The notes beneath the pieces are model-generated. The model saw nothing but the letters and a program-made list of their open reading frames with translations. It had not been told where the DNA came from and searched no databases. Shown here in pieces: positions 6,348 to 56,051 of a DNA stretch of 64,000 nucleotides. The stretch is taken from positions 14,997 through 78,996 of IMG/VR virus record IMGVR_UViG_3300028844_001691, one strand, 5' to 3'. The stretch comes from a virus. The translations under genes were made by a program, and so were the position numbers. Each line of letters starts with the position of its first letter. Position 1 is the stretch's first letter.

Positions 6348-6348
6348 A

Positions 6349-8812: not shown

Positions 8813-8816
8813 TTAC

Positions 8817-10318: not shown

Positions 10319-10319
10319 T

Positions 10320-37426: not shown

Positions 37427-38085
37427 TTTTTAAACCTTTCTTTTAACCAGTTCCAATTATTAATATTTGTATAATCTTGTTCGTACTTGCCGTACTCTGC
37501 ACCTGCTATTGCACCTGCAATACTATAATCTCCAAAGTCTCCGTTGCCAACTGTGGTCCATACTTTTAATCTAGCATCATCTTCTTCGTTCTTTTGTCCA
37601 GGTATAATCTTACTAGTGAGTTTAGTACATTCTCTAAATGCCGCTTTCCAAGTATTAAAAGGATCAGTATCATAATGCACTGTACTTCCTATTACTGGAT
37701 ACGGAACAAACTTTGTACTAATTGCAGTTGTAAAGTCTACAACTGTTTCAACGTCAACGTCTAAGACTTTTTGTGTAGGGAATAGTTTTATTCCACTGTA
37801 TCCATATACCAAGTCATTAACACTGTTACGAGCTCGGTATACATATACTGCATCCTTGCCGTACTTGTCTGGCTTCATAGATGGGTCAAAGTCTTCTGCT
37901 ATTAAGTTGTCGCCTTCTATAACATAATACATTTCAGTACGAGCCATTTTTGCACAGGCTTGATGTGCATTTGGTAAGCCTTGTACTCCATGACTACGCC
38001 TTGCCCATGGAAACTTTTTCTTTACAATGTCCCAATGCTTATCAGCATTAGGCTCTTCATAACTCATAAAAATAATATCAAACAT
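37423..38085 (-). CDS. putative glycosyltransferase (GT-A-like; paralog of 56229-57164)
   Basis: SYEEPN, AH, EGD (DxD-like), YGYSGIKLFP, AFRE. Confidence 0.55.
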   Translation of the reverse strand: MFDIIFMSYEEPNADKHWDIVKKKFPWARRSHGVQGLPNAHQACAKMARTEMYYVIEGDNLIAEDFDPSMKPDKYGKDAVYVYRARNSVNDLVYGYSGIKLFPTQKVLDVDVETVVDFTTAISTKFVPYPVIGSTVHYDTDPFNTWKAAFRECTKLTSKIIPGQKNEEDDARLKVWTTVGNGDFGDYSIAGAIAGAEYGKYEQDYTNINNWNWLKERFKK

Positions 38086-39272: not shown

Positions 39273-40786
39273 TAACTACACACCTTTACACCATATGCTT
39301 GTTCAAATCTATCTGCATCTGCTCTATCATTAACCATAGGCTCGCCTCTAATATTTAAACTTGTATTAAGTAAGATAGGACAACCTGTTAGTACATACCA
39401 TTTTTCTAATAGTTCTCTAACTCCACTAGGAAAATATTCGTCTACTGTTTGTACACGACTTGTTCCATCAACGTGTATGATTGCAGGAAACTCGTCTGGC
39501 TTCTTACACTTTGCAACCACTTGCATATAAGGACTTGTTTGCATTTGTGGAGGCATTTCAAAATATTCATGAACGTGTTCTGCTAATATCATAGGAGCAA
39601 ATGGTCTAAACTTTTGTCTGCGTTTAATCTCATTTACTTTGTCTTTGATTTCTGCTCCTCGAGGATCTGCTAATAAACTTCTATTACCTAATGCACGTGG
39701 ACCAAACTCTGCTTTACCACTTGCAACTCCTACAATCTTATTCTTTTGTAGTTCATCAATTAAAGCATCTGTTGGATATGCACCTGGGATAGGTGTTCCT
39801 AAGAATGGAGTCTCCCAATTAAGTTTACTACCATAAGCCAATGCCGCGGCACCTAAGGCACTGCCACAGTCTCCTGGGTTAGGCATAATCCAAATGTCAT
39901 CAAAGAAATTACCAAGTCCTCTATTGTATAAACAGTTAAGAGCAACTCCTCCCATGTAAACTAAATTACGGCTTTTATTAAAACCTCTAGCTCTTGCCAT
40001 TACGTTATCAATAAGTTGTTCTACAACTGCTTGAGCACTTGCGGCGATATCATATTCGTTAACATCTTTTAAAAAATCTTTGTCTACACCAATGTGTAAG
40101 TTATCTTTAAATCTACCATCAGAGTCGTCGTGTAATAGTGCATCATAAATTTCTTTTTCGTGTGTAGGTTTACCCCAACCAGCCATACCCATCATAATAT
40201 ATTCTTCGTCTAATGGACGTAAGCCAAGTCGATGCGTTAATGCACTATAGTATAAACCAATACTGTGTGGATACTTCTGACTCCACAACTTTTTATATAC
40301 TGCATTCATCTTCTCATCGTATTCGGCGTGCCATATACTAATAGTTTCCCATTCGCCAATAGCATCGATAACAACAACAGTTGCATCATTAAATGGACTA
40401 GTCTGAAATCCAGCCGCCGCATGAGTGTGATGATGTCTATAAGTATGAAGCATCGAGTCAGGCAAATAGTTCTTGTTATCAAATGTGAATTGTTTATTAA
40501 GAGCACCTCTGGTAGTCCATGTACTACTGCGATCGCCAAACATTCCTTGTCCAGCATATAGTTCTCTAGTCTTTTTTAACCAAGGTGTTTCGTAAAATCC
40601 AATAGCATCAAACTTTCCATATCCTTCTTGATATGATAATGCTTGTTTAATTATTGGTTCACACAAATCTTTGTCATGTTTTTTCTTACTGTATCTTTCA
40701 CTATGTCCAGCAAAAACAATTTCGCCATCTTCAACAACAGCCAAACCTGCATCGTGAAATCCTGCACTTACTCCTAGTGTTAACAT
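39272..40786 (-). CDS. O-carbamoyltransferase (NodU/CmcH/TobZ family)
   Basis: FHDAG, HHHTHAAA, DAIGE, GGVALN, EFGPRALGNRS, FRPFAP, HVDGTSRVQ, LNTSLN; start at 40786. Confidence 0.95.
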   Translation of the reverse strand: MLTLGVSAGFHDAGLAVVEDGEIVFAGHSERYSKKKHDKDLCEPIIKQALSYQEGYGKFDAIGFYETPWLKKTRELYAGQGMFGDRSSTWTTRGALNKQFTFDNKNYLPDSMLHTYRHHHTHAAAGFQTSPFNDATVVVIDAIGEWETISIWHAEYDEKMNAVYKKLWSQKYPHSIGLYYSALTHRLGLRPLDEEYIMMGMAGWGKPTHEKEIYDALLHDDSDGRFKDNLHIGVDKDFLKDVNEYDIAASAQAVVEQLIDNVMARARGFNKSRNLVYMGGVALNCLYNRGLGNFFDDIWIMPNPGDCGSALGAAALAYGSKLNWETPFLGTPIPGAYPTDALIDELQKNKIVGVASGKAEFGPRALGNRSLLADPRGAEIKDKVNEIKRRQKFRPFAPMILAEHVHEYFEMPPQMQTSPYMQVVAKCKKPDEFPAIIHVDGTSRVQTVDEYFPSGVRELLEKWYVLTGCPILLNTSLNIRGEPMVNDRADADRFEQAYGVKVCS

Positions 40787-41790
40787 TAAGCTCGTCTCTC
40801 CAAGTCTAACGTGGCACAATGATGACCTCCACCTAGTGTACGACTATGTGTTAGTTGTACAGGTATAACTTCAAACTTTGCACGTTCTAATTTTTTAATT
40901 AATTTTGGTTGTCTAGGATCTACAATAACTGTTTTAGGATCTACACTTAAAACATTCATACCAATCCAATTACTTGCATAAGGATAATTATGAAACTCCA
41001 TATCCTCTACACTGTCTACCCAAATACGTTTATGCTTCTTTAAAAATTTCGGTAATTGTGAAGGTTTAACTCTTTGTTTGTTAATTAACAATGTCGATTC
41101 ATTCAACGCACATATTGTACTGTCGATGTGTGCATAAGCATAAACATCTTCCCATATGTGAACTGTATACTCAGACCCGAGTACTGTACTTAACCAAGCC
41201 GCTCCAGCCGAATTACCTGTTTGACTTTTTAAGTATAACAAGTCATTGCCAAAACGTAAAACGTTTGCGGCATCAAATATAGGAGTCTTTTCTGTAAGTT
41301 TACCATTTTCAAATACTTCGTGTACTGGTAATGCATGACGTGGAGCACTAATCCATTTAACACCAGACTTCATTGCTTCGTGTCTAATATCTCTATATGC
41401 TTCTGTTTCGTGAAACCTACTATGAAACAATACAGGAGTTTCAATTACTGTATTGCCTACTACAAGTATAACATCTCTTGGACAATAATTATAAAACCCA
41501 TCTGCAAAGTATCTATATCCATGTACTGTTTGTTGAAAGTCTAATTGTCTTGGACGTAAAACTTCGACGCCTAAATCTGTTAATACTTTTTCAAATTGTC
41601 GTAGTTCATGGTCTGTTAAATCTAATATGTCTTTACTAATTGGTCCAACTGGTTGTGCAGATTCAGTCCACTTGCTATGTTTAGCAACTTCATTAAAGAC
41701 ATCATCATACTTTGGAAATCTTGCACCGTGAACATCTCCTAATACAACTCTTTTTAATGGATCCCATTCATTGTGCGATTCAATAATCAT
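40786..41790 (-). CDS. amidinotransferase (glycine / inosamine-phosphate amidinotransferase family)
   Basis: NEWDPL, YCPRD, FDAAN, HIDST, GGGHHCATLD with catalytic Cys. Confidence 0.93.
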   Translation of the reverse strand: MIIESHNEWDPLKRVVLGDVHGARFPKYDDVFNEVAKHSKWTESAQPVGPISKDILDLTDHELRQFEKVLTDLGVEVLRPRQLDFQQTVHGYRYFADGFYNYCPRDVILVVGNTVIETPVLFHSRFHETEAYRDIRHEAMKSGVKWISAPRHALPVHEVFENGKLTEKTPIFDAANVLRFGNDLLYLKSQTGNSAGAAWLSTVLGSEYTVHIWEDVYAYAHIDSTICALNESTLLINKQRVKPSQLPKFLKKHKRIWVDSVEDMEFHNYPYASNWIGMNVLSVDPKTVIVDPRQPKLIKKLERAKFEVIPVQLTHSRTLGGGHHCATLDLERRA

Positions 41791-42485
41791 TTCGTGTTTC
41801 CTATTTTAAAACATTTTGTAATACTTGGATACTTCACGTGTTGTGGCATTTTTTCTTTATACTGATCCAACTTAACTATACCAACTGCCGATTGTTCTGG
41901 CGACAGATAGTAATGATATCCAATTTCTTCATATTGCTCTTTATCCCAAGGAGACACTTTTAGGTCTCTACCATCGTACCTAGAGCGAATAATCCAATCA
42001 TATGCTTCTCTATTATCTAATAGTATAGCACCGCCTTTGCCAATTGTCAATGGTTTTCCATTGCCAAAGCTCAAGCATTTGAACGTTTCTGCTTCATACA
42101 TATTACGTTGTAATCTTCTAGCACTGTCAAATATAGGTAATTGTCCTAATTTATATTCGCCAATCCATTTATCTTCATTGATATTAAAAGATAAATCTAA
42201 ACGTTTAAGCATCATAGGAATACTTAAATATGTTTGATCAGGTATATCAATATGTGGAACACGATTTGGGTGTTTTCTTTTATACCACCTTATACATAAT
42301 TCGATTGCGTGTGTGCAACAATCAGTTGTTATCACATATGGTGCTCCAGTATAATCAGCAAGACGTTTTTCAAATTCGCTTATAACATCATACGGATCAT
42401 TCCAACTAACACCATAATCTTTTAACATCTCTAGGATGTCAAGATTAATAATGTCCTGTAATTTGTAAGGTGTATCTTGGTTCAT
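41787..42485 (-). CDS. DegT/DnrJ/EryC1/StrS aminotransferase, short form
   Basis: FEKRLADY, DCCTHA, DSA, SFGNGKPL...GGAI. Confidence 0.85.
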   Translation of the reverse strand: MNQDTPYKLQDIINLDILEMLKDYGVSWNDPYDVISEFEKRLADYTGAPYVITTDCCTHAIELCIRWYKRKHPNRVPHIDIPDQTYLSIPMMLKRLDLSFNINEDKWIGEYKLGQLPIFDSARRLQRNMYEAETFKCLSFGNGKPLTIGKGGAILLDNREAYDWIIRSRYDGRDLKVSPWDKEQYEEIGYHYYLSPEQSAVGIVKLDQYKEKMPQHVKYPSITKCFKIGNTK

Positions 42486-42969
42486 AACCTATATTGCCTG
42501 CACTGTGTGGAACTCTTCCACGCCAAAGCACGGCTCCTCCTTTGTGCCAATTCATACTATATTGGTCTACTTCAAACATATGTCCTTGTTTTTTATCTTC
42601 TAAAAATACTAAACAACGTAACACATCATCACTACTTTCGATATGAAAGAGTTCTTTATATTTGTTATAGTGATCTGCGTGTGGTGGTAGTATGTCACCT
42701 GTTGTCATTTTATAGAATGTATAACCACAGTCTTTCCATTCTAAAATTTTTCCAATGTCTTTTGCCCATTGCGGAATTGCTGACTGATCATTAAACATCA
42801 TACCAGTAAAGTTATCATGTGTATGTCCAGCAGTTCTCCATTTTGCTAATTGCTCTAAGTCTCCGTAGGCAACTCGTTTATAATCAAAACTTTCAAAGTC
42901 TTTTGTTTCCCATACAGGATCAAGTTCCAGTGTATGATATTCTAAAGGACTAATCTCTTGTGTTGCCAT
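42445..42969 (-). CDS. 2OG-Fe(II) oxygenase-like protein
   Basis: LPPHAD...PHSAGN...RYTLQITG. Confidence 0.7.
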   Translation of the reverse strand: MATQEISPLEYHTLELDPVWETKDFESFDYKRVAYGDLEQLAKWRTAGHTHDNFTGMMFNDQSAIPQWAKDIGKILEWKDCGYTFYKMTTGDILPPHADHYNKYKELFHIESSDDVLRCLVFLEDKKQGHMFEVDQYSMNWHKGGAVLWRGRVPHSAGNIGYEPRYTLQITGHY

Positions 42970-44098
42970 AATGTATTACTTTCACTTTTGGATCTTTGGC
43001 TGTGTATGTACGCCATGGATCGAAAACTATTGTTGCACTGTCGACATTAAAGTTATGGTCAGTTGGGTGAGTTATAACCATAACTTCAACTGCATGGTCG
43101 AAACCATTAACAATCATTCCACCCAACTTTCCAATATAGTGTTGAACTAGTAATGCATAAGATCCATCAGTGTATGCTACTCCTGGCTTATATGTATCAC
43201 TCGTAAAGCAAATTTGCTTTCCATGTTTTAATATTTCTTTTGCCATACGTTCGGCTTGTACTTCTCTACTTTTGGCAATCGCGTCGAACAAGTCATATCC
43301 TAAGTCTAATCGTTCCGCTAAATGTCTTAGGGCAATATTATCTCTAGGGTGACAAGGTCCACCGTCGCCCATGCCTGCTTTCATATAAGCGGCACTGGTT
43401 ATTCGGTATCCTGCATTACTTAAACTATTTGTTACAACATCAACATTCATATTCCCAACACTTTGGGCAACGTCTTGAATCATATTAACTAGACTTAACC
43501 TTGCACTAATAAATGTGTTGTAAAATATTTTTGTTGCTTCTGCTTCTTCCCATGTACCAATATTATAATGCGGATCATTCTCCATTACTGTTTTGTAAAA
43601 TTTTACTAATGCTTTTGCATCAGTGTCGTTTGGTTTGTTGCCTCCAATGATAACCATATCTGGATTTACCATATCCCAAGCAACTGTACCCATAGCAATT
43701 AAGTATGGGTTATAAATTAATCTTGCTTTATCTAATAAGCCTGCGAATTCTCTTCTTGTTGTTCCTGGAAGTACTGTACTAATCAAAACAACAATAGTAT
43801 CTTCTGTTGCGTATTTGTTAATTTCTTTTAAACATTCTTTAACAGGATCTAAACCAAAGTCTTTGTTTGGTAAATGTGTTATAGGAGTTTCTCCACCATA
43901 GTCTTTATGGTGTGGAGTTTGTACTGCAACAAAGACAAAGTCCTGTCCTACTACTGCTTCTTTTGGTGTCTTAGACACTCGTACAAGCCCACTAAAGCGT
44001 TCTTCTTTGTCATACCCTGTAACTGTATGTCCTTTTTTAACTAGCATCTCAGAACTAATCATTCCAAGTTTTCCTAAACCAAACCAGCCTATTTTCAT
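42950..44098 (-). CDS. UDP-glucose/GDP-mannose dehydrogenase family
   Basis: GLGKLG, AVQTP, STVLPGT, GDGGPCHPRD, YKPG. Confidence 0.9.
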   Translation of the reverse strand: MKIGWFGLGKLGMISSEMLVKKGHTVTGYDKEERFSGLVRVSKTPKEAVVGQDFVFVAVQTPHHKDYGGETPITHLPNKDFGLDPVKECLKEINKYATEDTIVVLISTVLPGTTRREFAGLLDKARLIYNPYLIAMGTVAWDMVNPDMVIIGGNKPNDTDAKALVKFYKTVMENDPHYNIGTWEEAEATKIFYNTFISARLSLVNMIQDVAQSVGNMNVDVVTNSLSNAGYRITSAAYMKAGMGDGGPCHPRDNIALRHLAERLDLGYDLFDAIAKSREVQAERMAKEILKHGKQICFTSDTYKPGVAYTDGSYALLVQHYIGKLGGMIVNGFDHAVEVMVITHPTDHNFNVDSATIVFDPWRTYTAKDPKVKVIHYGNTRD

Positions 44099-45300
44099 AA
44101 TTCTAATACCTTTGTGATATGTTTTCTAATCTCACCTGTTCTAATTAAGTTGCGATTGTGTATAAGGATTGGTCTCATATGTTTCTTTATTGTTTCTAAT
44201 TCTTTATATGATTGATTACTAATGTCGATAATAATATCAAATACTTTATCCATTCTTTTAATAGGATCAACTTCCTCATCGTAACTTTCATCCCAAAACT
44301 CGTGGAATGTTTTTGCTCCCCAATGCTTTAACAAGTCTAAACTATGTACACCTGCTAACAATAATACAGGTGAACCTTGCTTCATAGGGTTTAATGTTTT
44401 TTCACTTATTTGTCCCCAGGGGTATTCGTAATTTGTTTCACATACCAGACTAGCAAACGAGTTCCAATAAGTATCTTCTAACGGATCAGAAGTAGTAATA
44501 TTATTTATGGCTCCTACTTGTGGGCTCATATAATCTTTCATGCTTACTACTTGACATTCAGTATCTTCTTTTGTTAACGGTAAATGAGTCATAAGGTCTT
44601 TACAACCTTTGCTATAAGATTCAAAATGTTTACTGTTGTTTAATGGAAATTTTAAAAGTACATCATCTGTTTTATGATAATGCGTAATAACACTGTCCTT
44701 TGGCATTGTGTTATATAAGAAACTAACAGCCGCGTGTCTATGCTGATCCCAGCGATATGTAAAACAGTTTATTTTATGATTAATTTCTTCTGGTAGACCA
44801 TTGCTAGGTTCTCTGTTATAATGACAAGCACCTAAACTAAAAGTGTCTAATGGGTAAATTGCCCAGTCGGAATACTTTGTGTTTTGTAATTGCTCTAACA
44901 TACGATACTCATTTGTAAATATTTTAAACTTACAGTTGTGTTTATTACACCAGTTTTGTATCATATCGAATTCATTGATGCTACAATCTTCTTGTATTAA
45001 CCCGTCTGGGCAACTATACCTGGAGTGATTTTGCCATACTGATAATACTTCGTACAAAAAGAAATATACTGTCGTATGGTCTACAAAGTTAATACTTGAA
45101 TCTGACCAAGATTCGAACCATTCACACGGACCGTCAAATATAAAATAAGGGGTTTTGATTTCTAAACTTTGGAGTGATTCTGCTGTTTTTCGAAATCTTC
45201 CACGTGTGTCACTAAATTTAGTGATGGTTGACGTTGCATCAACTACAGAGTGGTTTATTGCTTTGTTAATATTATTTATGTAAATTGAGTTAAATTGCAT
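44095..45300 (-). CDS. putative glycosyltransferase-like protein
   Basis: C-terminal LVCET...ISEKTLNP...G.KTF...DESYD, reminiscent of GT10-like donor-binding motifs. Confidence 0.5.
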   Translation of the reverse strand: MQFNSIYINNINKAINHSVVDATSTITKFSDTRGRFRKTAESLQSLEIKTPYFIFDGPCEWFESWSDSSINFVDHTTVYFFLYEVLSVWQNHSRYSCPDGLIQEDCSINEFDMIQNWCNKHNCKFKIFTNEYRMLEQLQNTKYSDWAIYPLDTFSLGACHYNREPSNGLPEEINHKINCFTYRWDQHRHAAVSFLYNTMPKDSVITHYHKTDDVLLKFPLNNSKHFESYSKGCKDLMTHLPLTKEDTECQVVSMKDYMSPQVGAINNITTSDPLEDTYWNSFASLVCETNYEYPWGQISEKTLNPMKQGSPVLLLAGVHSLDLLKHWGAKTFHEFWDESYDEEVDPIKRMDKVFDIIIDISNQSYKELETIKKHMRPILIHNRNLIRTGEIRKHITKVLEL

Positions 45301-46648
45301 CGAACCAAGCCATATATTCGGGAAAAACTTCGCTAAAAATGGTACTTCTACGTTTATCGAGCTCTTTAGTATATACTTTAAAGTTCTGCTTATGATTATT
45401 ACTATCTACTGTTTGTTGACTTCTCCAGTATTCAATAATACGTTCTAGTTTAGCAGTTTCACTATTATGCATTAACTCTACAATTTCCATCTGTTTCATA
45501 TACTCAACTGTATTAGTCATGTATTCTTCAAATGTTTTATCTAGTATTTTAACATCCATCATCTCAGGATATCTTAAAAAAGGTATGTCAATGTACATAC
45601 AATCTCTACCGTATTGTTTTCTTATTTCAACTAAATCTTTTAGGAAGTCTTTGAATGATGTTACACTTAATGCATTGTAGGTACACATGAATGTAACTAC
45701 AAACCTGTCTTCATTTTTAAATTCTTCTAATACACGTTTTACATTTTTTATAAACTTGTTATAATCTAAACCATTTCTAATATACTCTGCTTTATTACCA
45801 AATGCTTCTGCACTTGTGTAAACTTCTAGTTTACGAACTTTGCCACTTGCTAATACTTTCTTTGCTTGATTAATAAACTTATCGAATAGTTTGTCCTCAA
45901 CACAAAAGTTACTATTAATACCTAACAGTAAATCTTTATTTGGTTTATCTGTTTCAATGATCCAGTCCATCATTTTAAATGTGTTCTTGTTCATAAGTGG
46001 CTCGCCACCTGTAACACGGAACGTATGCAATGCTGGATACAACTCAGGCCACCATTCCCAAAATGCTTCTACATATGGATTGTGTTCTCTTTCTGGTATA
46101 GGCATTCTGCCTCTACGTTCTGTCCATGTTATGTCGTTGTAATTATCTGAAGTGCTAAAGCCTCCATGTTGTTTTACTTCTTGCATCCACGCACTACTAA
46201 TAGCAGGACTACAATACATACATTTAAAATTACAAGCATAACCAAAACTTACTTCTACATAACTTGGTTGAAAGTTTGTACTCCAATCATTATTTTTAAT
46301 TGTATCAAAGTGTTTGTTACTCCAACTAAATGCACTCTTTAAATGTCTGTCACTTAAAGCATTTGGATCTGCATCTTCAACTCTCCAACAGTAGTCACAT
46401 TCTTTAGGTCTACCACCTTCAAGCATTTCTTTACGTTGTTGTTTTTTATATATAGAGTTGTGTAATGAACTAGGGTCTAGTTTAATTTCGTCAACTGGTA
46501 CTTGGTGTACCGGTGGGTGATGACAACTATGTGCAGTTCCATTTTGTAAGTTAAGTGTAAGTTGTGTCCACTTTGCTAAACAGAATCCAGGACCTACTGC
46601 ATTCAGTTTGGCTTTCATTTCATGCGGATCTGTTCCGGTAAAACTCAT
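45290..46648 (-). CDS. N-terminal Twitch-domain radical SAM enzyme (type B)
   Basis: FCLAKW, SCHHP, CDYC, CNFKCMYC, TGGEPL, YIRNG. Confidence 0.93.
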   Translation of the reverse strand: MSFTGTDPHEMKAKLNAVGPGFCLAKWTQLTLNLQNGTAHSCHHPPVHQVPVDEIKLDPSSLHNSIYKKQQRKEMLEGGRPKECDYCWRVEDADPNALSDRHLKSAFSWSNKHFDTIKNNDWSTNFQPSYVEVSFGYACNFKCMYCSPAISSAWMQEVKQHGGFSTSDNYNDITWTERRGRMPIPEREHNPYVEAFWEWWPELYPALHTFRVTGGEPLMNKNTFKMMDWIIETDKPNKDLLLGINSNFCVEDKLFDKFINQAKKVLASGKVRKLEVYTSAEAFGNKAEYIRNGLDYNKFIKNVKRVLEEFKNEDRFVVTFMCTYNALSVTSFKDFLKDLVEIRKQYGRDCMYIDIPFLRYPEMMDVKILDKTFEEYMTNTVEYMKQMEIVELMHNSETAKLERIIEYWRSQQTVDSNNHKQNFKVYTKELDKRRSTIFSEVFPEYMAWFDAI

Positions 46649-47352
46649 TACGAATAATCTTCTTTAAGTATATCCCAAGTATCATAAGGCCCTTTGACTT
46701 GATGCCATTTATCTCCAGGGTTTGTCATTTTGTCTGCTAATGGTTTATCGTTTCCATTAATGTGAATTCTGTCTCCAAAGAATATCATTGGTGTTCCAAT
46801 AATATCATATACTTGTGCTTTGTTCTTTCCTTTTAGATGAATATCTATACTAGTGTTACCACCTAGTTCTGCTTCAAAGCCTGGGAAAGTTTCGTTAAAC
46901 ATTTCACAAATACTAACACGTTCATTATTTACTTTGTCCCATTCATAATAATCATCACGTTGTTGCCCTACGGCATTTCTTCCTACAGTACTAAAGTTTA
47001 TTAACCCTGTACGTTTTTCAATATGAAGTCCATACTTGTGTTTATATTTACTGAAGTCTACTTGTTGTTCTAACCATGTGTCCATATCTTCTGGAGCATT
47101 AAGGTTACTACTCGAAACTTCAATACCATTACGCCATACACTGTTACCTGCACATTGAAATACCATTGTACAGTTGTCTACGATCTCGTGTCCTATTTGT
47201 TCTATTGTTTTAGGTCTATCACTACCTGTAACAATAAAGACACTTTTGTTTTTCATCCAGTTTAAGAACCAGAGTCTAAAGTCAACAGGAATTACTTGCC
47301 TACTTTCAGACAAGGTTCCATCTACGTCAAATACATAATTTACACGGTCCAA
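46648..47352 (-). CDS. HAD-IIB phosphomannomutase-like enzyme
   Basis: FDVDGTL, VTGSD, RTGLINFS..GR, GG.TSIDI, FGDR...GND. Confidence 0.88.
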   Translation of the reverse strand: MDRVNYVFDVDGTLSESRQVIPVDFRLWFLNWMKNKSVFIVTGSDRPKTIEQIGHEIVDNCTMVFQCAGNSVWRNGIEVSSSNLNAPEDMDTWLEQQVDFSKYKHKYGLHIEKRTGLINFSTVGRNAVGQQRDDYYEWDKVNNERVSICEMFNETFPGFEAELGGNTSIDIHLKGKNKAQVYDIIGTPMIFFGDRIHINGNDKPLADKMTNPGDKWHQVKGPYDTWDILKEDYS

Positions 47353-47501
47353 CTTTTCAACTGCTCCTTTGTTGGTTTCATTGGTTCAAGTTTTTCTATC
47401 TTACCACCCTTCTCTAAAAACTTTTTCATTCGTTCATCTAGTTTTCTTTGAAGTTCAGCAGGTTCTGGTTTTGTATAATCTTTTTGTTTATTATCTATCA
47501 T
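47340..47501 (-). CDS. 53-aa SutA-like RNA-polymerase-binding mini-protein (not in ORF track)
   Basis: MIDNKQKDYTKPEPAELQRKLDERMKKFLEKGGKIEKLEPMKPTKEQLKSWTV; ATGA coupling; FLxxGGKI motif. Confidence 0.65.
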   Translation of the reverse strand: MIDNKQKDYTKPEPAELQRKLDERMKKFLEKGGKIEKLEPMKPTKEQLKSWTV

Positions 47502-48634
47502 TGTGTTACACTGTCTATTGCTTTTCTTAATTTTAATGCTCCGGCTTTCATACCGTCTGGGTGTTCGTGAATTGCTCCACCAACATTTGCCATATAGTCA
47601 ACACCAAAGCGTCTTGTTATTTCTGGAATAAGTTCTGCTGTCATGCCACAACTTAAAGCAGGCACTACATTGTTTCCACTTAACATATGCATTGTGCTTC
47701 GAAGTTCATTTTCATCATCACTTAAATATCCGCCCCACATACCTGTATGGATTGTATCCACTCCACAGATACTTGCTAACTTACATAACACATACCAACT
47801 AATACGATATGCATTCTTTGTACTGCTTATTACTTTGTCGCCTGACTTCTGATAATGTATATACAAAGGTAAGTTTAATTTGTTAATACTCTTATAAGAT
47901 CCGTGCCCACTCCAGAAGTTAACGTGTACTCCATTACCTCCGCCATCTGCAACCATTTTGGCTCTATCTAGCAAGTACAAAGGATCACTATTAATACAAT
48001 AGCAATACACAACGTTTGTTCCTGCTAACACCCGCTGTATGACGTCTATGCGAGTCTTAAGGGGTAAACAAGCCGGGTTTGCCATTATCTCATCTTCTTT
48101 GATAAAGTCAACTCCGCCTTCTACAAATGCAGTAACAATTTCGACTAATGCTTGTTCTGTTAGTCCTGTCTTGGGTTTAACAATACTACCTAGCAATGGC
48201 TTGTTGTAATTGCCTGTAAGTTTTCTAAATCCTGATAATCCGTAACGTGGTGCAACTGCATCACATAATGAAAAATCGATATCTAAATCTAATAGTTCAC
48301 ATCTGTGAATATAATCGATGTCCATTTGTCCACCCATTAACACACAAAGTAATTGTGCTATTCCATCAGTTTCCCAGTCAATAATTCTATAGGGCCAAGC
48401 AATTTTAACTATGCCTGTGTTCTTTCCTATAAAGTCTGCTGGCTTTCCAATAATCTTTGCTGAGTATTGTTCAATCAACTCTGGTGTTTCATATTCATTT
48501 CTTACACTAGGGTTACCTACACTTTGCCCGACTGCTAATCCAAATGCCGCCTTGTTTAAGTCGTTACCTTCTAGTTTGTATGTTACTGTAAAGTATTCCT
48601 TGGGATCTACTTCACTCACGTATATATCAAGCAT
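47498..48634 (-). CDS. RuBisCO-like protein (form IV)
   Basis: GSIVKPKTGL, GGVDFIKEDE, DTIHTG, PALSCG, GGAIHEHPDG; loop-6 Lys absent. Confidence 0.93.
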   Translation of the reverse strand: MLDIYVSEVDPKEYFTVTYKLEGNDLNKAAFGLAVGQSVGNPSVRNEYETPELIEQYSAKIIGKPADFIGKNTGIVKIAWPYRIIDWETDGIAQLLCVLMGGQMDIDYIHRCELLDLDIDFSLCDAVAPRYGLSGFRKLTGNYNKPLLGSIVKPKTGLTEQALVEIVTAFVEGGVDFIKEDEIMANPACLPLKTRIDVIQRVLAGTNVVYCYCINSDPLYLLDRAKMVADGGGNGVHVNFWSGHGSYKSINKLNLPLYIHYQKSGDKVISSTKNAYRISWYVLCKLASICGVDTIHTGMWGGYLSDDENELRSTMHMLSGNNVVPALSCGMTAELIPEITRRFGVDYMANVGGAIHEHPDGMKAGALKLRKAIDSVTQ

Positions 48635-48651
48635 AATGTATTGTACCTTCT

Positions 48652-48981
48652 TTATTCTTTAATGTCAAACATATATTTGTCATCTGTGTCACAAATATCT
48701 CTAACTACTGTTAATTCTACATCGGTTAAGTATTCAACTTGACTAACTTCATATGGGTATAATATAAAAATGTCGCCTTCGCTAAATATTTCTCCGTTAA
48801 TTTTTACTTTTCCTTTTCGCATACAGTTGATCTCTGTACCTTTTTTATGAAAGTGATCCTGATGGAATTCACCTTTTTTGTGTCTGTGAATACCAACTTC
48901 AAAGTTTGCCTTAAAAGCCGTAGGTTCAAAGTTACCTACAAACCATCCACCTTTCATATCATCTAATTTAAATTTCTTCAT
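48652..48981 (-). CDS. cupin-like protein
   Basis: GGWFVGNFEP, HFHK..TE...GDIF. Confidence 0.75.
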   Translation of the reverse strand: MKKFKLDDMKGGWFVGNFEPTAFKANFEVGIHRHKKGEFHQDHFHKKGTEINCMRKGKVKINGEIFSEGDIFILYPYEVSQVEYLTDVELTVVRDICDTDDKYMFDIKE

Positions 48982-49262
48982 TTATGTTCCTCTAACAAGT
49001 TATATTCATATAACTCTTTTGGTGTATTAACTATAAGCATATCAGGATCGTGTACATCCATAAACTTAACTTCGTTAACGTAAACTTTACACATATCAGT
49101 TAGTTCAGGATAGTCTAATATTAATTCATTATCTAATATTACAGTATCAAAGTTTCCTACTTCAAGTGTTCTTTGTAAAACACTTCTGCCATTACAGGCA
49201 ACAACTGCGATTGGGTAATCCCAACCTATCCACTTATCGTTTGATACAGATAGTTTGCCCAT
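48978..49262 (-). CDS. hypothetical protein
   Basis: ORF in operon; start position uncertain. Confidence 0.5.
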   Translation of the reverse strand: MGKLSVSNDKWIGWDYPIAVVACNGRSVLQRTLEVGNFDTVILDNELILDYPELTDMCKVYVNEVKFMDVHDPDMLIVNTPKELYEYNLLEEHK

Positions 49263-49921
49263 CCTTTATGTCCTTCATCTAATGTGTGTCCACCTGTGCC
49301 ACAGGGCCAGCCTTGACTTTTTGTCATGTCAATAAAACTTGGCATAATGTAATTAACATCTTTAAGCCATTCGCTGTCTGGTTCGTCAAGTGCAAACGTT
49401 TGTATTAATTTTACTTTTAAACTTTTTGCAATTTGTTGTAAGTTCCACATACGTTCAAACTGCATTTGTTTTCTACTTTCAGTTCCTAGTGTTGTTGTAT
49501 ACGGTTTGTGCATTTTATTAATTGTATTAACTAACATAGGATCTAAATTCATTTCATCGTTGCCTGGTATATGTCCTGGTATGTTATAACATACATTATG
49601 ATAAGGTATATACTTTGCACCTTGCCAATCCACTGGTAACTCATCACGTTCAAACGTTGTCCAACAAACAACAACAAGCAATTCTGCACCTGGATGTTTA
49701 TTACACCATTCACGCATAAAACGTATTGTGCGTCTTGCTATTCTGCTCCCACTTGTTCCACGCATTGCTTCATTTACAACCGCTGGTATACTTAACTTAT
49801 CTGCAAGTAGTTTGGGCCAACTGTTACGCAATCTGTATGTAGGTGTGTCATCATTATAAGGTAATCCTAATTCATCACCTTCGGTCCAACTATCACCATT
49901 TGCATACAAACATTTAATCAT
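49226..49921 (-). CDS. SGNH/GDSL-like protein
   Basis: YANGDSWT, NEA..G.S, C-terminal GH...GH. Confidence 0.75.
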   Translation of the reverse strand: MIKCLYANGDSWTEGDELGLPYNDDTPTYRLRNSWPKLLADKLSIPAVVNEAMRGTSGSRIARRTIRFMREWCNKHPGAELLVVVCWTTFERDELPVDWQGAKYIPYHNVCYNIPGHIPGNDEMNLDPMLVNTINKMHKPYTTTLGTESRKQMQFERMWNLQQIAKSLKVKLIQTFALDEPDSEWLKDVNYIMPSFIDMTKSQGWPCGTGGHTLDEGHKGWANYLYQTISG

Positions 49922-50640
49922 CCACGCCACCATTTGTTATGATAGTTAGATAAATCTTCTGGAGTACCAACCGGGCTAAAGTTCTTTGCTTCTACCTCAT
50001 ATGGTTTAACAATATTATTTTTAAGTGTGTAATTATACACTGGTGCTAGATAAAATTCGTTATTGTGTCTATCATTGTTTTCAATCATTTGTTCAGCACC
50101 TTCAACAAATAAACTTCCTTTGCTCCAATGGTATAAACCAACAGTAGCCATATTACTAATTGCAACTTTCTCTGCCGCTTCTGTTATGTGCCCGTCGTCA
50201 TTAATCTTAACAAAACTATGTTTATTATGATTATGTGGGTAGGTCATTACCCAACTCACGTGGGGCTCAAGTTTACATTTTTCTAAAAACATTTCGCTAT
50301 CCCAATGTAACACTTGATCACTGTTAATACTAATTAAAGGTTCGTCGTTGTTTATAAATTCTTTTGCTTTTAATAAACTACAAGCGGCACCATCTGTAAG
50401 ATGATCTAGTGCAACAATATTAACATTGTCTGCAAAACTTTCTAAATGTTCTTTAAGCCATGGATAATCAACAAGATGTTCTTGTTGAACTACGAATGTA
50501 TAGTTACCAGCAATACCTAAACTATCAACAGCACTTTGTATCATTGTGGTGCCACCAACTCTTACTAGAGGTTTAGGAACAGTATATCCTGCATCTTTGA
50601 ATCTACTGCCGGCTCCTGCCATTCCAATTATAATATTCAT
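49918..50640 (-). CDS. sugar-phosphate nucleotidyltransferase
   Basis: MAGAGSRF..AGY..PKPL, TDGAA, NSD, AEK, EFY, GTPED. Confidence 0.9.
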   Translation of the reverse strand: MNIIIGMAGAGSRFKDAGYTVPKPLVRVGGTTMIQSAVDSLGIAGNYTFVVQQEHLVDYPWLKEHLESFADNVNIVALDHLTDGAACSLLKAKEFINNDEPLISINSDQVLHWDSEMFLEKCKLEPHVSWVMTYPHNHNKHSFVKINDDGHITEAAEKVAISNMATVGLYHWSKGSLFVEGAEQMIENNDRHNNEFYLAPVYNYTLKNNIVKPYEVEAKNFSPVGTPEDLSNYHNKWWRG

Positions 50641-50789: not shown

Positions 50790-51509
50790 TTACTGTTGCA
50801 AGTGAGCAACAATAGTTTTTGCTAATTTTTTATGTCCTAATTCATTAGGGTGTCTTCCGGGAGCCCTTACGTCTTCAAGGTGTTCGTATTCCATTAATTG
50901 TCTATTGAAACTAATGGGATATGGGGATATTGCATCTAACCATTTTTCATTTGCTTCGGGTCTACCTAGTACAAATTCTGGATTGTCTAAAGCATATGTT
51001 TGTAATAATCTAACTCCTAAATTATCACAGGCTTGCTTCAACAACCATTGTAAGTTAAAGAACTTATAACTATTTACCTTACTACTGTTCAGCATAGTAC
51101 GATTCATGTGATAATCTAACATTAATTTATCAGTTACATTTGGTTTAGAATTCATAAGCATACTTGTATATTCAATATCTAATGATTCCCAATCGGTATA
51201 TCCGTTATTGTGTTCTCTTTTAACTGCAACTGGAAGTTCAAATCTTTCATATGTAGTCCATGCAACAATTACTAAAAGTTCCTCTGGGTTACCTTTATAG
51301 TTTCTAATATAGTCTATAGTCTTTCGAAATATTCTATCATTACTTCCGCCACCTTGTGCTTCGTTAACTAGTTGTGGTATTTTTAATTCTTGTGCAACGT
51401 GCCAGGGCCAAGTATTATAAAACTTGTATGTAAGATGATCTGTATTATCATCTTTTAACTCTTGTCCAAAAGTCCAACTATCACCGTTTGCATATAAAGT
51501 TTTAATCAT
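50790..51509 (-). CDS. SGNH/GDSL-like protein
   Basis: YANGDSWTFG, GGSNDRIFR, HPNELGH. Confidence 0.8.
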   Translation of the reverse strand: MIKTLYANGDSWTFGQELKDDNTDHLTYKFYNTWPWHVAQELKIPQLVNEAQGGGSNDRIFRKTIDYIRNYKGNPEELLVIVAWTTYERFELPVAVKREHNNGYTDWESLDIEYTSMLMNSKPNVTDKLMLDYHMNRTMLNSSKVNSYKFFNLQWLLKQACDNLGVRLLQTYALDNPEFVLGRPEANEKWLDAISPYPISFNRQLMEYEHLEDVRAPGRHPNELGHKKLAKTIVAHLQQ

Positions 51510-52269: not shown

Positions 52270-53045
52270 TGTGCATCTACTTTAGGTTTAATAATTTCAA
52301 ACACTTGCCTATGTCCTTCGTAGTCACAATGTCCTGTGTTCCTTTTGTCAGGATACTCTCTACTAAAATAACCCCAATCAACATTTGCATAATTTACTTC
52401 AGGTAGCAGTCTTTCAAAGTCTGGCTGGTGTCCCATAAAAACGTGTGGTATATTATTTGTTTTCATTAGCAAGTGTGCTGATGTTAAAATACCAATGTCA
52501 TACTCATTTTTAATATCAAATGAGAAAAAGTCTGCTACCCAATTCTGTAATACTCTTAAACGTGCATCTGGCTCGTGTCTTTCAAACTGTGCCCAATGTG
52601 CCTTAACATCTCTATCAAAGAAACTATCTAAATTTTGTAGTGTTTCACTTTGCATACTATTATCAGTTGTAACTGGAATAGGTCTTCGAAACTCTGCTGG
52701 TGTGTATTTGTCATACGGCGGATAGTCTTCATAATTTAAATGTTCAATTGTTGGTTCTGTTCCCATAGGTTTATCTTGTCCAGGTTTAAACCAAACAGTT
52801 CTTGCCGCATTTGTCATACTAATAATAACGAAAGGTTTGTAATTACCTACTGTCATTCTTTCAACTGCGTGTTTTACTTGCAACCAAATAGTGAAGTTAC
52901 AACATCCACTTCTACCAATTACTTTTTGTTCTACACCTTTGTATTCGGCAGTAAGTCCACCAAAACTTTTCTCAAAACAATCATGGTCAGGTAATCCACT
53001 ACCATTACTAAAACTATCACCGCACGTTATAATTAAATTTCGCAT
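52257..53045 (-). CDS. SGNH/GDSL-like protein
   Basis: CGDSFS, GCCN, GHCDYEGH. Confidence 0.75.
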   Translation of the reverse strand: MRNLIITCGDSFSNGSGLPDHDCFEKSFGGLTAEYKGVEQKVIGRSGCCNFTIWLQVKHAVERMTVGNYKPFVIISMTNAARTVWFKPGQDKPMGTEPTIEHLNYEDYPPYDKYTPAEFRRPIPVTTDNSMQSETLQNLDSFFDRDVKAHWAQFERHEPDARLRVLQNWVADFFSFDIKNEYDIGILTSAHLLMKTNNIPHVFMGHQPDFERLLPEVNYANVDWGYFSREYPDKRNTGHCDYEGHRQVFEIIKPKVDAQWPH

Positions 53046-53905
53046 ATGTTATTCTCTCTAATATATCTATTAAGTTCTCTTGCCCAAAGCATATGTCCAT
53101 ATTTGTTTGGGTGCATACCTGATATAACTTTTGTATTATACTCAGTTTCATCTTGACTTGTAATATATCCATGAAAACTATGTGGTGCTTCTGTTTTACC
53201 GTAGAATCTTTTGCTGTCTACTTGTTCCCATAACCAACCATCGTTTTGTCCGTTATAATGAAAGTTCCAACGTGGGTCAGCATTGCCTACAGTCATCTTT
53301 TCTGTTTCACTATTAACATAATTCTTATCTTGCCATTGTGCTATTTGTGTTTCATCTACATTATAAAATGCTTGAAAGAACAAGTAGTTAATCTTATGTA
53401 CTTTAAAAAAGTTTTCTAATTGTAGTACTTGTTGTACATATCGATTAACATACTCTTCTTTATTCCATAAGTACATTCTGTAGTTATCAAAGAAGGGTTG
53501 CATACCTCTTTGCATATACGGATGGTTAGTTTGATTGGGCCATATAGTAGTCCAGCCAGAGCCGTTACGTTCGTCTACAGGATCCTTATAGTAAAAGTCC
53601 TTACGTTCAGGACTAGTTAAGCCAACTATGACAAACAAATTGTTTTCACAGTCTATATCAGGCTTAATATAATTTTCAGTAATCCAACTTAATGTTGTTC
53701 TTACAATTCTATCATTACTTGCGGCAGGATAAGATATGTTTGTTAAGTCATCTGCTTTAATCATATCCTTTAACATAGTGGGCCAAATTTTAGGAATGCG
53801 ATATGCATTGTTCTCTGGATCCCAATCACTTACAGTGTCTGGTAAAGCAGGATCTCTAATCTCACTGCCAAATGTCCAACTATCTCCTGTTGTTAATAAG
53901 TGCAT
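53033..53905 (-). CDS. SGNH/GDSL-like protein
   Basis: TGDSWTFG, ASNDRIVR, HPNKYGH. Confidence 0.8.
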   Translation of the reverse strand: MHLLTTGDSWTFGSEIRDPALPDTVSDWDPENNAYRIPKIWPTMLKDMIKADDLTNISYPAASNDRIVRTTLSWITENYIKPDIDCENNLFVIVGLTSPERKDFYYKDPVDERNGSGWTTIWPNQTNHPYMQRGMQPFFDNYRMYLWNKEEYVNRYVQQVLQLENFFKVHKINYLFFQAFYNVDETQIAQWQDKNYVNSETEKMTVGNADPRWNFHYNGQNDGWLWEQVDSKRFYGKTEAPHSFHGYITSQDETEYNTKVISGMHPNKYGHMLWARELNRYIRENNICEI

Positions 53906-54654
53906 TAATAAGCCGCCTTTATCTCTTCAAATTGTGTACTTGGATCTAAATCTTCTACACTAGTTCTCCAAAGTGTTTCCATTAATTGTGGAACAATTTG
54001 TATCATTTTAATATTTCTTTTTTGTGCTTGTTGATATATTAATGTTCCAGGACTTAACATACTATCTCCTGGATCTGTAGTATAACCACCTTGTAGTTTT
54101 AATGCTAATGGATAAGTTTCCCAATTATAATAACGATATGAATCACAAGCAATATCCATACTAGGACTATCACCCCAGAATATAATATCACTTAATCCGT
54201 GTTTACCAAAGTCGTTTGGTACTAAACCTCTGTTACCAATACTATAGTATATACTTCTTTCTTCAATAGGTCTCGGACCAAATGTTTTTCCATCTGGTGT
54301 TAGCATATCATATCTGCATTTAATTACTTTATCATATCTAAAATTATTCTTTACTTCAACTTCACGTTTCATAAAGTTTGATTTTTGTATACTGTAAAGC
54401 ATATTACCAAACGGGCCTGCATGATTAATTGAAGTTTGATAATCTAGTTTAATTAAATTATGTACACTATCATTAATAGTTTCTTCTAATATTTTGTAGT
54501 CATCTAATTTATGTAACTTGTCACCTGAGGTTGTCCAAGTATGACAATAAATGTCTGCTGGTGTATCTCTAAAGTAATCCATTAAACGTGGCATAGCAAC
54601 TTTAAAAGTTCTAAGTTCACCACTAAAACATATTGCAGTATTAGAGTGTTTCAT
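53905..54654 (-). CDS. putative glycosyltransferase (AxCxSGxxR family)
   Basis: AICFSGELR, HTW, YD.VI..RYD. Confidence 0.55.
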   Translation of the reverse strand: MKHSNTAICFSGELRTFKVAMPRLMDYFRDTPADIYCHTWTTSGDKLHKLDDYKILEETINDSVHNLIKLDYQTSINHAGPFGNMLYSIQKSNFMKREVEVKNNFRYDKVIKCRYDMLTPDGKTFGPRPIEERSIYYSIGNRGLVPNDFGKHGLSDIIFWGDSPSMDIACDSYRYYNWETYPLALKLQGGYTTDPGDSMLSPGTLIYQQAQKRNIKMIQIVPQLMETLWRTSVEDLDPSTQFEEIKAAY

Positions 54655-55378
54655 AATCGCCTCCTCCTGTCATATGTTCTTGTTTAGGTCTTACTAGTTT
54701 AATTGGGGGATATATTTGTTCTAAGTTTAAGTTACATTCTTTTAAGTAATACATAAAAACGTGTTCAGGTCCATAATGTAATTTCTCTGGCATTTCAAAA
54801 AACTCTATTGGGTGTCTATGAAAGTGACTATAAAAATCACAAGCAATATCATAAACATCTGTTGGTCCTTGCCAATACAAATCTCCACAACGACTTCTGT
54901 GATTGCCTTCTTCAAATCCTAAATGTATAACTTGTAACGTATCTTTCTTAGGTTCAGGTACTTGCCAATCTTCGTCAAACATAGTGTCCCAACGTAATCT
55001 AACAACTAAATCAAAGTTACTATTGTTCTCTATTTCAAATTTCTTTTTTAAATGTGATGCTACCATTACACCATAAAACTGACTTTGGTAATTAACATCA
55101 TGTAATGCTTGGTCTAAACCTGGTGTGAATTCAATTTGTTTTTGTGATACTATTTCTAGTCCAGGTAATTCTCTACGAAGTTCTTGTATCTCAGTATTAG
55201 GAACTTCTTCTATGTCATCGATACCTTTAGTTACTTTAACAAAGTTTGGTGCACTACGAGTATTCCATGTATGTCCAAAGTAATGTACTTCGTGTTCTTT
55301 AAATATATCTTTCCAAGTTGGTAAACATTTACGCCAACTCTGTCTTAATTGTCCACTTAAACAAATTGCTATTTTCAT
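54641..55378 (-). CDS. putative glycosyltransferase (AxCxSGxxR family), paralog of 53905-54654
   Basis: AICLSGQLR, HTW, FDLVVRLRWD. Confidence 0.55.
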   Translation of the reverse strand: MKIAICLSGQLRQSWRKCLPTWKDIFKEHEVHYFGHTWNTRSAPNFVKVTKGIDDIEEVPNTEIQELRRELPGLEIVSQKQIEFTPGLDQALHDVNYQSQFYGVMVASHLKKKFEIENNSNFDLVVRLRWDTMFDEDWQVPEPKKDTLQVIHLGFEEGNHRSRCGDLYWQGPTDVYDIACDFYSHFHRHPIEFFEMPEKLHYGPEHVFMYYLKECNLNLEQIYPPIKLVRPKQEHMTGGGDYETL

Positions 55379-55390
55379 AATGTTATCCTT

Positions 55391-55633
55391 TTAAAACCAG
55401 TTCCAAACTCCACGTATTGCTAAACACAGATACATAAGTTCCATTAGTGCTCTGGGTATATCTTTATCTTTGTAACCCATGTATACCCAAATACTACAAC
55501 TGAATAATGCAACTGTCCACCCTAGCCATTGTAGTTCTTCGTTACCACTTGATAATATAAATGCACTTATCATTGCTAGGATAAAACCTAGCCACCTAAA
55601 TCCATCCAGTTTTTCGTAAAAGCGAATTTTCAT
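55391..55633 (-). CDS. small membrane protein
   Basis: Three hydrophobic helices. Confidence 0.7.
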   Translation of the reverse strand: MKIRFYEKLDGFRWLGFILAMISAFILSSGNEELQWLGWTVALFSCSIWVYMGYKDKDIPRALMELMYLCLAIRGVWNWF

Positions 55634-56051
55634 AATTGCTTACCCAATCAGAGCAAATACCAAAGCAACCCTCAGGGACGGTATCTTTCTCATTTTGCAA
55701 ACATATAACACTTTTAGATGTTACTTGTTTGTAAGGGTATGTCCAAATATACCCTTTACTTGTTAATGTTCTTTCATCTTGTTCATGCCAAAAGCAATGT
55801 ATGTAATTAAATAACATAAATTCTAATGCTTCTAAATTTTTTGCATGATTCCAAAATGCATTGTTGCTTATAAAATTTTGTGTAACAGGGTATGTAGGTT
55901 TATCGTGTCCTAGCCATAACCGTTCATTAACAAACCACACATCGACTTCGCAGTCAAAACCTTTGTCAACTGCGTTAAGTAAATACTCAGGATCATTTTC
56001 CCTCTCAGGTTTAGGACCTGCTGTATTTCCTCTATGTGCGATTAGTTTCAT
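55596..56051 (-). CDS. glycerophosphodiester phosphodiesterase-like (PLC-like) protein, minimal
   Basis: IAHRGN, EN, EVDV, LGHD, GICSD. Confidence 0.8.
   Translation of the reverse strand: MKLIAHRGNTAGPKPERENDPEYLLNAVDKGFDCEVDVWFVNERLWLGHDKPTYPVTQNFISNNAFWNHAKNLEALEFMLFNYIHCFWHEQDERTLTSKGYIWTYPYKQVTSKSVICLQNEKDTVPEGCFGICSDWVSNYENSLLRKTGWI

Follow-up and report, generated by a model that had tools for sequence, protein, structure and literature searches.

A RuBisCO-like gene in a phage glycan island

The window analysed here is the 64,000-nucleotide stretch spanning positions 14,997 to 78,996 of IMG/VR virus record IMGVR_UViG_3300028844_001691, and it holds, within a phage glycan island of about 52 kb, a gene for a RuBisCO-like protein (RLP) that probably helps to make an unusual activated sugar. 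Read along the minus strand, the locus encodes a GDPD-like protein, two paralogues of a family referred to as c3, further proteins, a sugar-phosphate nucleotidyltransferase (NTase), a DUF6071 protein, a 94-residue open reading frame (ORF), a cupin, the RLP and a PMM-type HAD protein. The RLP ORF is intact and open, starts with ATG and is preceded, about 12 nt upstream, by a GAAGG Shine–Dalgarno-like motif.

47498–48634, minus strand: RuBisCO-like protein (P0001, 378 aa), K295/D298 subtype of the phage or 'Form IV-like' clade (PF00016, residue map, AlphaFold2 model, dN/dS)

The protein is a member of the RuBisCO large-chain superfamily: it matches PF00016, the large-chain catalytic domain, well above the Pfam gathering score (E-value 1.3e-33, 116.9 bits, cut-off 30.1), and its AlphaFold2 model, computed from a 16-sequence family alignment, displays the RuBisCO fold with an N-domain and a TIM barrel (predicted local distance difference test score, pLDDT, 85; predicted template-modelling score 0.83). 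The template-modelling (TM) score of this model is 0.86 to the P. horikoshii form III RuBisCO (2d69/2cwx) and 0.80 to the MtnW enolases. The ratio of nonsynonymous to synonymous substitution rates (dN/dS), 0.05–0.09 against relatives at 99, 96, 92 and 84% identity, indicates that the gene is kept by strong purifying selection. Contigs from the RNA libraries of three studies match it, some with 0–1 differences; DNA carry-over is possible, so that these matches do not prove transcription. An 11/12 promoter-like match lies just upstream of the RLP start; given that such sites are no commoner than in shuffled sequence (19 vs 18.4), we do not count it as evidence of a promoter.

Active-site residues

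Residues were mapped with a HMMER alignment to the P. horikoshii form III RuBisCO 2cwx and with a 127-sequence MAFFT alignment that includes 89 non-family RuBisCO/RLP representatives; they are given in spinach numbering, with the RLP residue in brackets. The RLP retains (i) the two lysines of the KPK motif, K175 (K153) and K177 (K155); (ii) the metal-site motif in the form KEDE, with K201 (K179), D203 (D181) and E204 (E182) kept and D202 replaced by E180; (iii) H327 (H296), S379 (S328), G381 (G330) and G403/G404 (G352/G353). H294, R295 and K334 are replaced by Q262, K263 and Y303, respectively. A sequence-only reading of the window had listed K175/K177, K201-E-D-E, H327, S379 and G403/G404 as kept and H294Q, R295K and K334Y as changed, and both alignments bear it out at every position. 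Further replacements, absent from its list, are E60 by G36, T65 by N41, W66 by P42, N123 by G102, H298 by D266 and G380 by C329.

The set of residues associated with carboxylation is therefore incomplete in the RLP (E60G, T65N, W66P, N123G, H294Q, R295K, H298D and K334Y). Among 11 bona-fide-like sequences, E60 is present in all, T65, W66, H294, R295, H298 and K334 are present in 10 and N123 in 9, the exceptions being P0269 and P0188. At the C-terminus, the RLP has 29 residues beyond G404, as compared with a median of 53 in the bona-fide-like sequences, and its alignment to 2cwx stops 34 residues short of the end of that chain; with so few residues after G404, the protein lacks the tail that closes over loop 6. 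Since E60, T65, W66, N123, H294 and K334 are replaced and the C-terminal latch is missing, the active site, as predicted from sequence, rules out carbon fixation: the RLP cannot carboxylate. The sequence-only reading had likewise called the protein a non-carboxylating RLP; its premise that loss of K334 marks form IV was imprecise, as many non-carboxylating outgroup RLPs keep K334.

Among 122 family sequences, the residue pattern shows at least 95% invariance, whereas it is rare (<25%) among the 89 outgroup sequences; hence it does not reflect chance. On its catalytic face, the barrel also carries several new polar residues that are invariant in the family, namely R45, D105, N215, D217, H237 and Y247. 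Positions 295 and 298 co-vary, with K...D in 84 loci, including the window, and S...A in 33; this co-variation suggests that substrate subtypes exist and that the 295/298 pocket may read the distal end of the substrate. The S295/A298 subtype (33 loci among L007–L081) was seen on viral contigs only, and a CmcI-like methyltransferase lies near 18 of its 33 loci, as against 9 of the 84 K295/D298 loci.

Family placement

A word-indexed search of 5.8 billion proteins returned 2328 RLP homologues, with more than 100 clusters of proteins about 375–382 aa long that are 52–57% identical to the RLP. An exhaustive HMMER search of 1.8 billion representatives retrieved family members down to 33% identity (E ≤ 1e-48), followed by a sharp break, past which lie generic RuBisCOs and RLPs at about 30% identity (E around 1e-32). 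In a maximum-likelihood tree (IQ-TREE, LG+G4, 125 rows), the family forms one clade with a support of 100 in the SH-like approximate likelihood ratio test; supports along the outgroup backbone are only 8–75, and the family has no supported sister. Labelled through their NCBIfam scores, the outgroup clades comprise form III/I-like (P0167), OiaX-like (P0220) and MtnW-like (P0247) sequences, and the RLP family falls inside none of them. The RLP also scores far below the NCBIfam cut-offs for bona fide RuBisCOs, for which models TIGR03326, NF003252 and NF010002 were used (149 vs 497 for form III, TIGR03326; 145 vs 438 for form I; 86 vs 489 for form II), below both MtnW cut-offs (TIGR03332, 101 vs 514; NF007095, 125 vs 409) and below the OiaX cut-off (NF042437, 116 vs 700). 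By these sequence measures, it belongs to none of form I, II or III, MtnW or OiaX, and the separation from MtnW-type proteins that the sequence-only reading had proposed is seen in the scores and in the tree alike.

The clade has a published counterpart. Jaffe, Castelle, Dupont & Banfield (2019, Mol Biol Evol, PMC6389311) describe about 80 'Form IV-like' RuBisCO-related proteins from myovirus-type IMG/VR contigs, highly divergent, deep-branching and without key RuBisCO residues, which group with two Beckwithbacteria sequences and whose function is left open. The present family answers to this description: it occurs on phage contigs (193 in IMG/VR, and a 306-kb relative encoding the Gp23 capsid protein and a terminase), it has a Beckwithbacteria member (locus L089, 48% identity, same cassette) and it is a separate, monophyletic clade. 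Matched in this way, by description, it is a published but functionally orphan clade of a kind already known, and not a new discovery. The NTase linkage, the fusion, the cupin and GDPD-like partners and the SAR11, DPANN and actinomycete carriers are found here and, as far as we read that paper, are not reported in it. The Global Ocean Sampling (GOS) paper notes new branches of RuBisCO homologues; literature searches on phage RLP function, an RLP–NTase link, pelagiphage RuBisCO and IV-GOS found nothing beyond Jaffe et al. 2019.

An NTase accompanies the RLP across lineages

The ORFs of 81 viral loci were clustered, and the resulting partner profiles were run on viral and cellular loci. Partners within 6 kb of the RLP, out of 122 loci, are as follows.

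118/122 loci: sugar-phosphate nucleotidyltransferase, usually adjoining the RLP, on a side that varies by lineage
85/122 loci: truncated GDPD-like protein, about 150 aa
75/122 loci: metal-type cupin, about 108 aa
52/122 loci: c3 family, about 245 aa, with a GT-A fold in the AlphaFold2 model, nearest to GT6 glycosyltransferases
31/122 loci: protein similar to nucleoside diphosphate (NDP)-sugar 4,6-dehydratases/epimerases
10/122 loci: PMM-type HAD protein, only in the lineage of the window

CmcI- and FkbM-type methyltransferases, GT2 and WavE are further recurrent neighbours. The NTase linkage persists while the order of the genes differs between phages, Alphaproteobacteria, Verrucomicrobia, Actinomycetota, Patescibacteria and DPANN archaea. 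The two proteins also occur as one: P0125 (667 aa) is a natural RLP–NTase fusion with the full active-site signature of the family, and the proteins of its 90% cluster, 128 in all, come from several sources, including Tara Oceans. It heads a tight, translationally coupled operon in which the fusion gene is followed by those for the cupin, the GDPD-like protein and a second NTase. The sequence-only reading had tied the RLP to a glycan pathway, and its tie to sugar activation and glycan genes holds well beyond the window, through the NTase, the fusions, and the GT-A transferases, NDP-sugar dehydratases and methyltransferases nearby. An association with methionine-salvage genes (mtnA/B/K/X/D) was not found, the conserved partners being the NTase, the cupin, the GDPD-like protein and the GT-A protein.

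Two family-specific NTase copies surround the RLP in many SAR11, DPANN and fusion-lineage loci (L087, L094–L107, L128–L136), which hints at two nucleotidyl transfers or at a heteromeric enzyme.

The partners of the RLP in the window

46648–47352, minus strand: PMM-type HAD-IIB protein, 234 aa, directly downstream of the RLP gene (PF03332, E 3e-20)
48652–48981, minus strand: metal-type cupin, 109 aa (G-E...H-x-H...E), directly upstream, 18 nt from the RLP start (alignment A2)
48978–49262, minus strand: 94-aa ORF between the cupin and NTase genes, matching no family
49226–49933, minus strand: DUF6071 protein, 235 aa, between the cupin and NTase genes (PF19547, E 4.7e-10)
49918–50640, minus strand: sugar-phosphate nucleotidyltransferase, 240 aa (PF00483, E 1e-12)
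53905–54654, minus strand: c3 paralogue, 249 aa, in the same BLAST cluster as the next protein and 21% identical to it in alignment A4
54641–55378, minus strand: c3 protein, 245 aa, with an N-terminal AxCxSGxxR motif, putative GT-A-fold glycosyltransferase (AlphaFold2, pLDDT 80)
55596–56051, minus strand: truncated GDPD-like protein, 151 aa (HRG...EN...ExD...GHD...HxK), 7 kb upstream of the RLP gene (alignment A3)

The matches of the NTase to NCBIfam models of sugar-1-phosphate NTases are all below cut-off. Compared as a profile with the PDB, it is closest to an uncharacterised NDP-sugar pyrophosphorylase (4evw, E 1e-35), followed by GDP-mannose pyrophosphorylases and the heptose-1-phosphate guanylyltransferase HddC, so that by sequence it lies nearest to the sugar-1-phosphate guanylyl- and uridylyltransferases. 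For the cupin, in which H43, H45 and E50 are invariant in alignment A2, profile matches in the PDB are quercetinase (1e-6) and small mannose-6-phosphate isomerase/Cupin_2 proteins (4e-4), and its Pfam matches are generic cupins below threshold. The best Foldseek matches of the c3 model are the GT6 enzymes BoGT6a, GTA and GTB (E 6e-9, TM about 0.5), and the profile of the GDPD-like protein matches the GDPD 7e0v over its N-terminal 50 residues (E 0.002). Neither Pfam nor NCBIfam assigns the cupin, the GDPD-like protein or c3 to a family above threshold. The GDPD-like gene usually adjoins the RLP gene in other loci and is 7 kb away in the window; the order of the 94-aa ORF and the DUF6071 gene between those of the cupin and the NTase is the same in L003 and L006.

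The GDPD-like family of about 150 aa keeps the full set of GDPD catalytic motifs in some 60% of the normal length, and a 206-aa version adjoins the fusion protein (L128:10330–10947). Three DUF6071 paralogues, one with a weak GDSL-lipase match, are interleaved with the cassette (49226–49933, 50790–51509 and 53033–53905, minus strand). One long same-strand run downstream of the RLP gene includes multiple radical SAM genes, among them 35395–36573, 38085–39272 and 45290–46648 (minus strand), a carbamoyltransferase (39272–40819), a DegT aminotransferase fragment (41787–42485) and two UDP-glucose/GDP-mannose dehydrogenase-like genes (34228–34989 and 42950–44098).

Related enzymes

Form III RuBisCOs (P. 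horikoshii, 2cwx/2d69; Thermococcus kodakarensis) provide both the best sequence match (E 4e-32) and the best fold match of the RLP. They share with it K175, K177, K201, D203, E204, H327, S379, G403 and G404; identity is 27%, and the carboxylation-specific residues and the C-terminal tail are missing in the RLP. MtnW/YkrW is the 2,3-diketo-5-methylthiopentyl-1-phosphate enolase. The RLP resembles it (G. kaustophilus 2oem, B. subtilis 2zvi) in its RuBisCO fold, at about 25% identity, and would have in common with it a Mg2+ core built on a carbamylated lysine, the base equivalent to K175, a keto substrate with a single phosphate, which for the RLP is a proposal, and the absence of carboxylation. 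Unlike MtnW/YkrW, it keeps K177, carries Q294, Y334 and C380, belongs to a different clade and has an NTase as neighbour instead of mtn genes.

The Rhodospirillum rubrum DeepYkr RLP is a 5-methylthio-ribulose-1-phosphate 1,3-isomerase: a ketose 1-phosphate is enolised and the proton is returned at another carbon, which, likened by description, is the type of chemistry that we propose for the RLP; the genomic contexts of the two proteins differ. OiaX and OiaC, ascribed to work by Carter and colleagues in 2018, are reportedly a 3-oxo-isoapionate-4-phosphate decarboxylase and a transcarboxylase-hydrolase of the apiose pathway. As RLPs that act on sugar-derived phospho-keto acids, they take the fold into sugar metabolism beyond methionine salvage; their role is catabolic, whereas the one proposed here is biosynthetic, and the signature of the OiaX-like outgroup sequence P0220 (K334 with F335, and S-S-G) is unlike that of the RLP. 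The characterised RLPs (MtnW, R. rubrum DeepYkr and OiaX/OiaC) all enolise phospho-ketones with the same core.

A proposed role in nucleotide-sugar synthesis

The explanation that we favour, with moderate confidence, is that the RLP enolises a mono-phosphorylated keto sugar, as an isomerase, epimerase or tautomerase, and feeds an NDP-sugar pathway. We read it so because the enolisation apparatus is kept while the carboxylation residues and the distal-phosphate pocket are lost. What the RLP appears to keep are the parts for the first step of RuBisCO, namely the Mg2+ site on a carbamylated lysine (K201, D203, E204), the acid/base lysines K175 and K177, H327, and a backbone cradle for the phosphate adjoining the carbonyl (S379, G381, G403, G404). 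What it would have lost are the means of CO2 addition, hydration and cleavage (E60G, T65N, W66P, N123G, H294Q, K334Y and the C-terminal latch) and, through R295K and H298D, the positive pocket for a second, distal phosphate. In this scheme, in which reaction type, step order, substrate and final glycan are all inferred, the RLP would bind a mono-phosphorylated keto sugar, remove the proton next to the carbonyl to form a metal-stabilised enediolate, and return a proton elsewhere or from the other face, the outcome being isomerisation, epimerisation or tautomerisation. New acid/base and binding roles may fall to family-specific residues such as Y303 (position 334), H237, N215/D217 and C329. The product would pass to the co-inherited NTase, directly or after the cupin and a mutase, to give an unusual NDP-activated sugar, which the GT-A transferases of the glycan island would use as donor. 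Epimerase chemistry has a precedent on this scaffold, since misprotonation of the enediolate, a side reaction of RuBisCO, gives xylulose bisphosphate. The observations of the sequence-only reading are thus confirmed, and its interpretation, a biosynthetic RLP acting on a sugar phosphate for a glycan pathway, is partly supported.

Several points weigh against this explanation. The cassette has no conserved gene for making the substrate. GT-A transferases depend on an anomeric NDP-sugar, whereas the phosphate cradle that the RLP keeps is the one adjoining the carbonyl in RuBisCO, and a ketose 1-phosphate is not an obvious substrate for an NTase; a mutase, of the PMM type, lies near just 10 of the 122 loci. 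The roles of the cupin and the GDPD-like protein fall outside the explanation, and the two NTase paralogues of several lineages hint at chemistry beyond the activation of one sugar. A more ambitious version, to which we give slightly less than an even chance, would make the RLP the committed enzyme of an undescribed nucleotide-sugar pathway, in which the enolisation machinery of RuBisCO serves to epimerise or isomerise a common ketose phosphate to a rare sugar phosphate, which is channelled to a dedicated NTase, in some lineages within one fused polypeptide. The resulting donor would decorate large marine phages, on their virions or hosts, and the surfaces of SAR11, DPANN and Patescibacteria, and the superfamily would thereby gain its first biosynthetic, glycan-building function.

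The order of the two enzymes could also be the reverse. The NTase would then make an NDP-sugar, a 4,6-dehydratase might oxidise it to an NDP-4-keto sugar, and the RLP would enolise the NDP-(4-)keto sugar as an epimerase or keto-isomerase, with the β-phosphate in the retained cradle. The fusion to the NTase is compatible with this order, and so are changes in the lid: the residues that the partner subunit places over the phosphate site are all replaced by smaller ones (T65N, W66P, N123G, E60G), which, together with the missing latch, could open room for a nucleotide. NDP-sugar 4,6-dehydratase-like genes do occur near 31 of the 122 loci, but they are absent from three quarters of them, and we know of no RuBisCO or RLP that binds a nucleotide-linked substrate; we regard this order as unlikely. 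Obligate adjacency and fusion, along with the loss of many classical catalytic residues, would suit a non-catalytic scaffold or regulatory subunit of the NTase, comparable to the inactive paralogues that regulate some GDP-mannose pyrophosphorylases. However, 122 sequences reaching down to 33% identity show the metal ligands, both lysines, H327 and the phosphate cradle to be invariant, together with the new polar residues on the catalytic side of the barrel. Such a pattern is expected of catalysis and not of a scaffold, and it leaves a non-catalytic role quite improbable.

A salvage function is given a similarly low probability. The RLP would in that case convert methylthio- or 5-deoxy-ribulose-1-phosphate, as an enolase of the MtnW kind or an isomerase of the DeepYkr kind, and would recycle the waste of the many radical S-adenosylmethionine (SAM) enzymes of the island; the HAD protein would serve as phosphatase, and the cupin would stand in for acireductone dioxygenase (ARD). 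The adjacency of RLP, HAD and cupin in the window does resemble MtnW–MtnX–MtnD, the island has several radical SAM genes, and a cradle for a phosphate adjoining the carbonyl suits ketose 1-phosphates. But the MtnW models score far below their cut-offs, the family stands apart from the MtnW-like outgroup in the tree, the conserved partner is the NTase and not MtnA/B/K, HAD proteins are confined to 10 of the 122 loci and radical SAM genes (cluster c8) to 15 of the 81 viral ones, and the cupin has no ARD-family match. As for a true RuBisCO, engaged in CO2 fixation or in the salvage of AMP or other nucleotides during infection as the public label implies, the form III enzymes are indeed the best sequence and fold matches, K175, K177 and K201 are kept, and public sources use the name 'ribulose-bisphosphate carboxylase large chain'. 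Against this stand K334Y, H294Q, E60G, N123G, T65N, W66P, R295K, H298D, the lack of a C-terminal tail and the low form III score; moreover, neither a phosphoribulokinase nor a ribose-1,5-bisphosphate isomerase family is found among the recurrent neighbour clusters. True carboxylation by the RLP is essentially excluded.

The carboxylase label has a practical consequence: because public pipelines attach it to these RLP genes, surveys of viral auxiliary metabolic genes could miscount them as carbon fixation, which the predicted active site rules out. The strict NTase linkage and the fusion, for their part, turn the function of an orphan clade into a testable proposal, and testing is made practical by the cultured bacteria that carry the cassette (Nonomuraea rosea, Azospirillum oleiclasticum and a Pelagibacter strain). 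If the enolising role in sugar activation is correct, it would add a biosynthetic reaction to the chemistry of the RuBisCO fold and would point to a surface sugar common to abundant ocean bacteria and their giant phages.

Viral origin and distribution

The window comes from a 78,996-bp IMG/VR record estimated by CheckV to be 22% complete. Its flanks encode ThyX, a phrog_1314/DUF2201 protein and tail-fibre-like proteins, and the 15 kb of the record outside the window contain matches to phage protease, exonuclease and QueE-like families. The same gene order is found on a 306,714-bp contig (CheckV, 87% complete) around an RLP that is 96% identical; among the other products of this contig are a T4 Gp23 major capsid protein (E 2e-99) and a large terminase. 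The RLP-bearing record is viral, and the capsid and terminase of this relative make its lineage that of a jumbo T4-like myophage. Marine metagenomes of many studies contain the stretch again, and the RLP family is found on 193 IMG/VR contigs. When 50,697 deposited phage genomes were searched with the RLP by tblastn, none matched, so that no cultured phage of that set appears to carry the family, although very close records may be missing from the set.

The family is nevertheless not restricted to viruses, since 43 of about 185,000 species genomes, all cellular, carry the RLP. It occurs, among others, on a complete chromosome of Pelagibacter and on a Verrucomicrobia chromosome, in many SAR11 single-cell genomes, in Patescibacteria, in Woese- and Nanoarchaeota, and in the species Nonomuraea rosea and Azospirillum oleiclasticum. 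The sequence-only reading, which had called the protein viral, was right about the record. In Nonomuraea rosea JCM 17326 (L116), the cassette (6800–14624) comprises genes for a GDPD-like protein, the RLP, a cupin, an NTase, a GT2 protein, an AdoHcy-hydrolase-like NAD protein and a dNK-like kinase; it lies about 1.2 kb from a phage-integrase-family gene and may belong to a mobile element.

Near the start of the window, on the plus strand, are genes for the ThyX thymidylate synthase (4306–4968) and a NifU/IscU-like protein (6347–6716). At the DNA level, the best matches are to marine myophages (Methylophilales phage Melnitz) and to records of uncultured phages; no tRNA gene was found in the 64-kb window. 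Among the outgroup sequences, P0209, a 583-aa RLP from outside the window, has an N-terminal TIR_2 domain (E 3e-13) and could be a defence-type protein. P0154 and P0162 (726 and 742 aa) are fusions of IF-2B-family domains, of the ribose-1,5-bisphosphate isomerase type, to RuBisCOs with a complete catalytic set, so that a single polypeptide would cover two steps of the archaeal AMP pathway.

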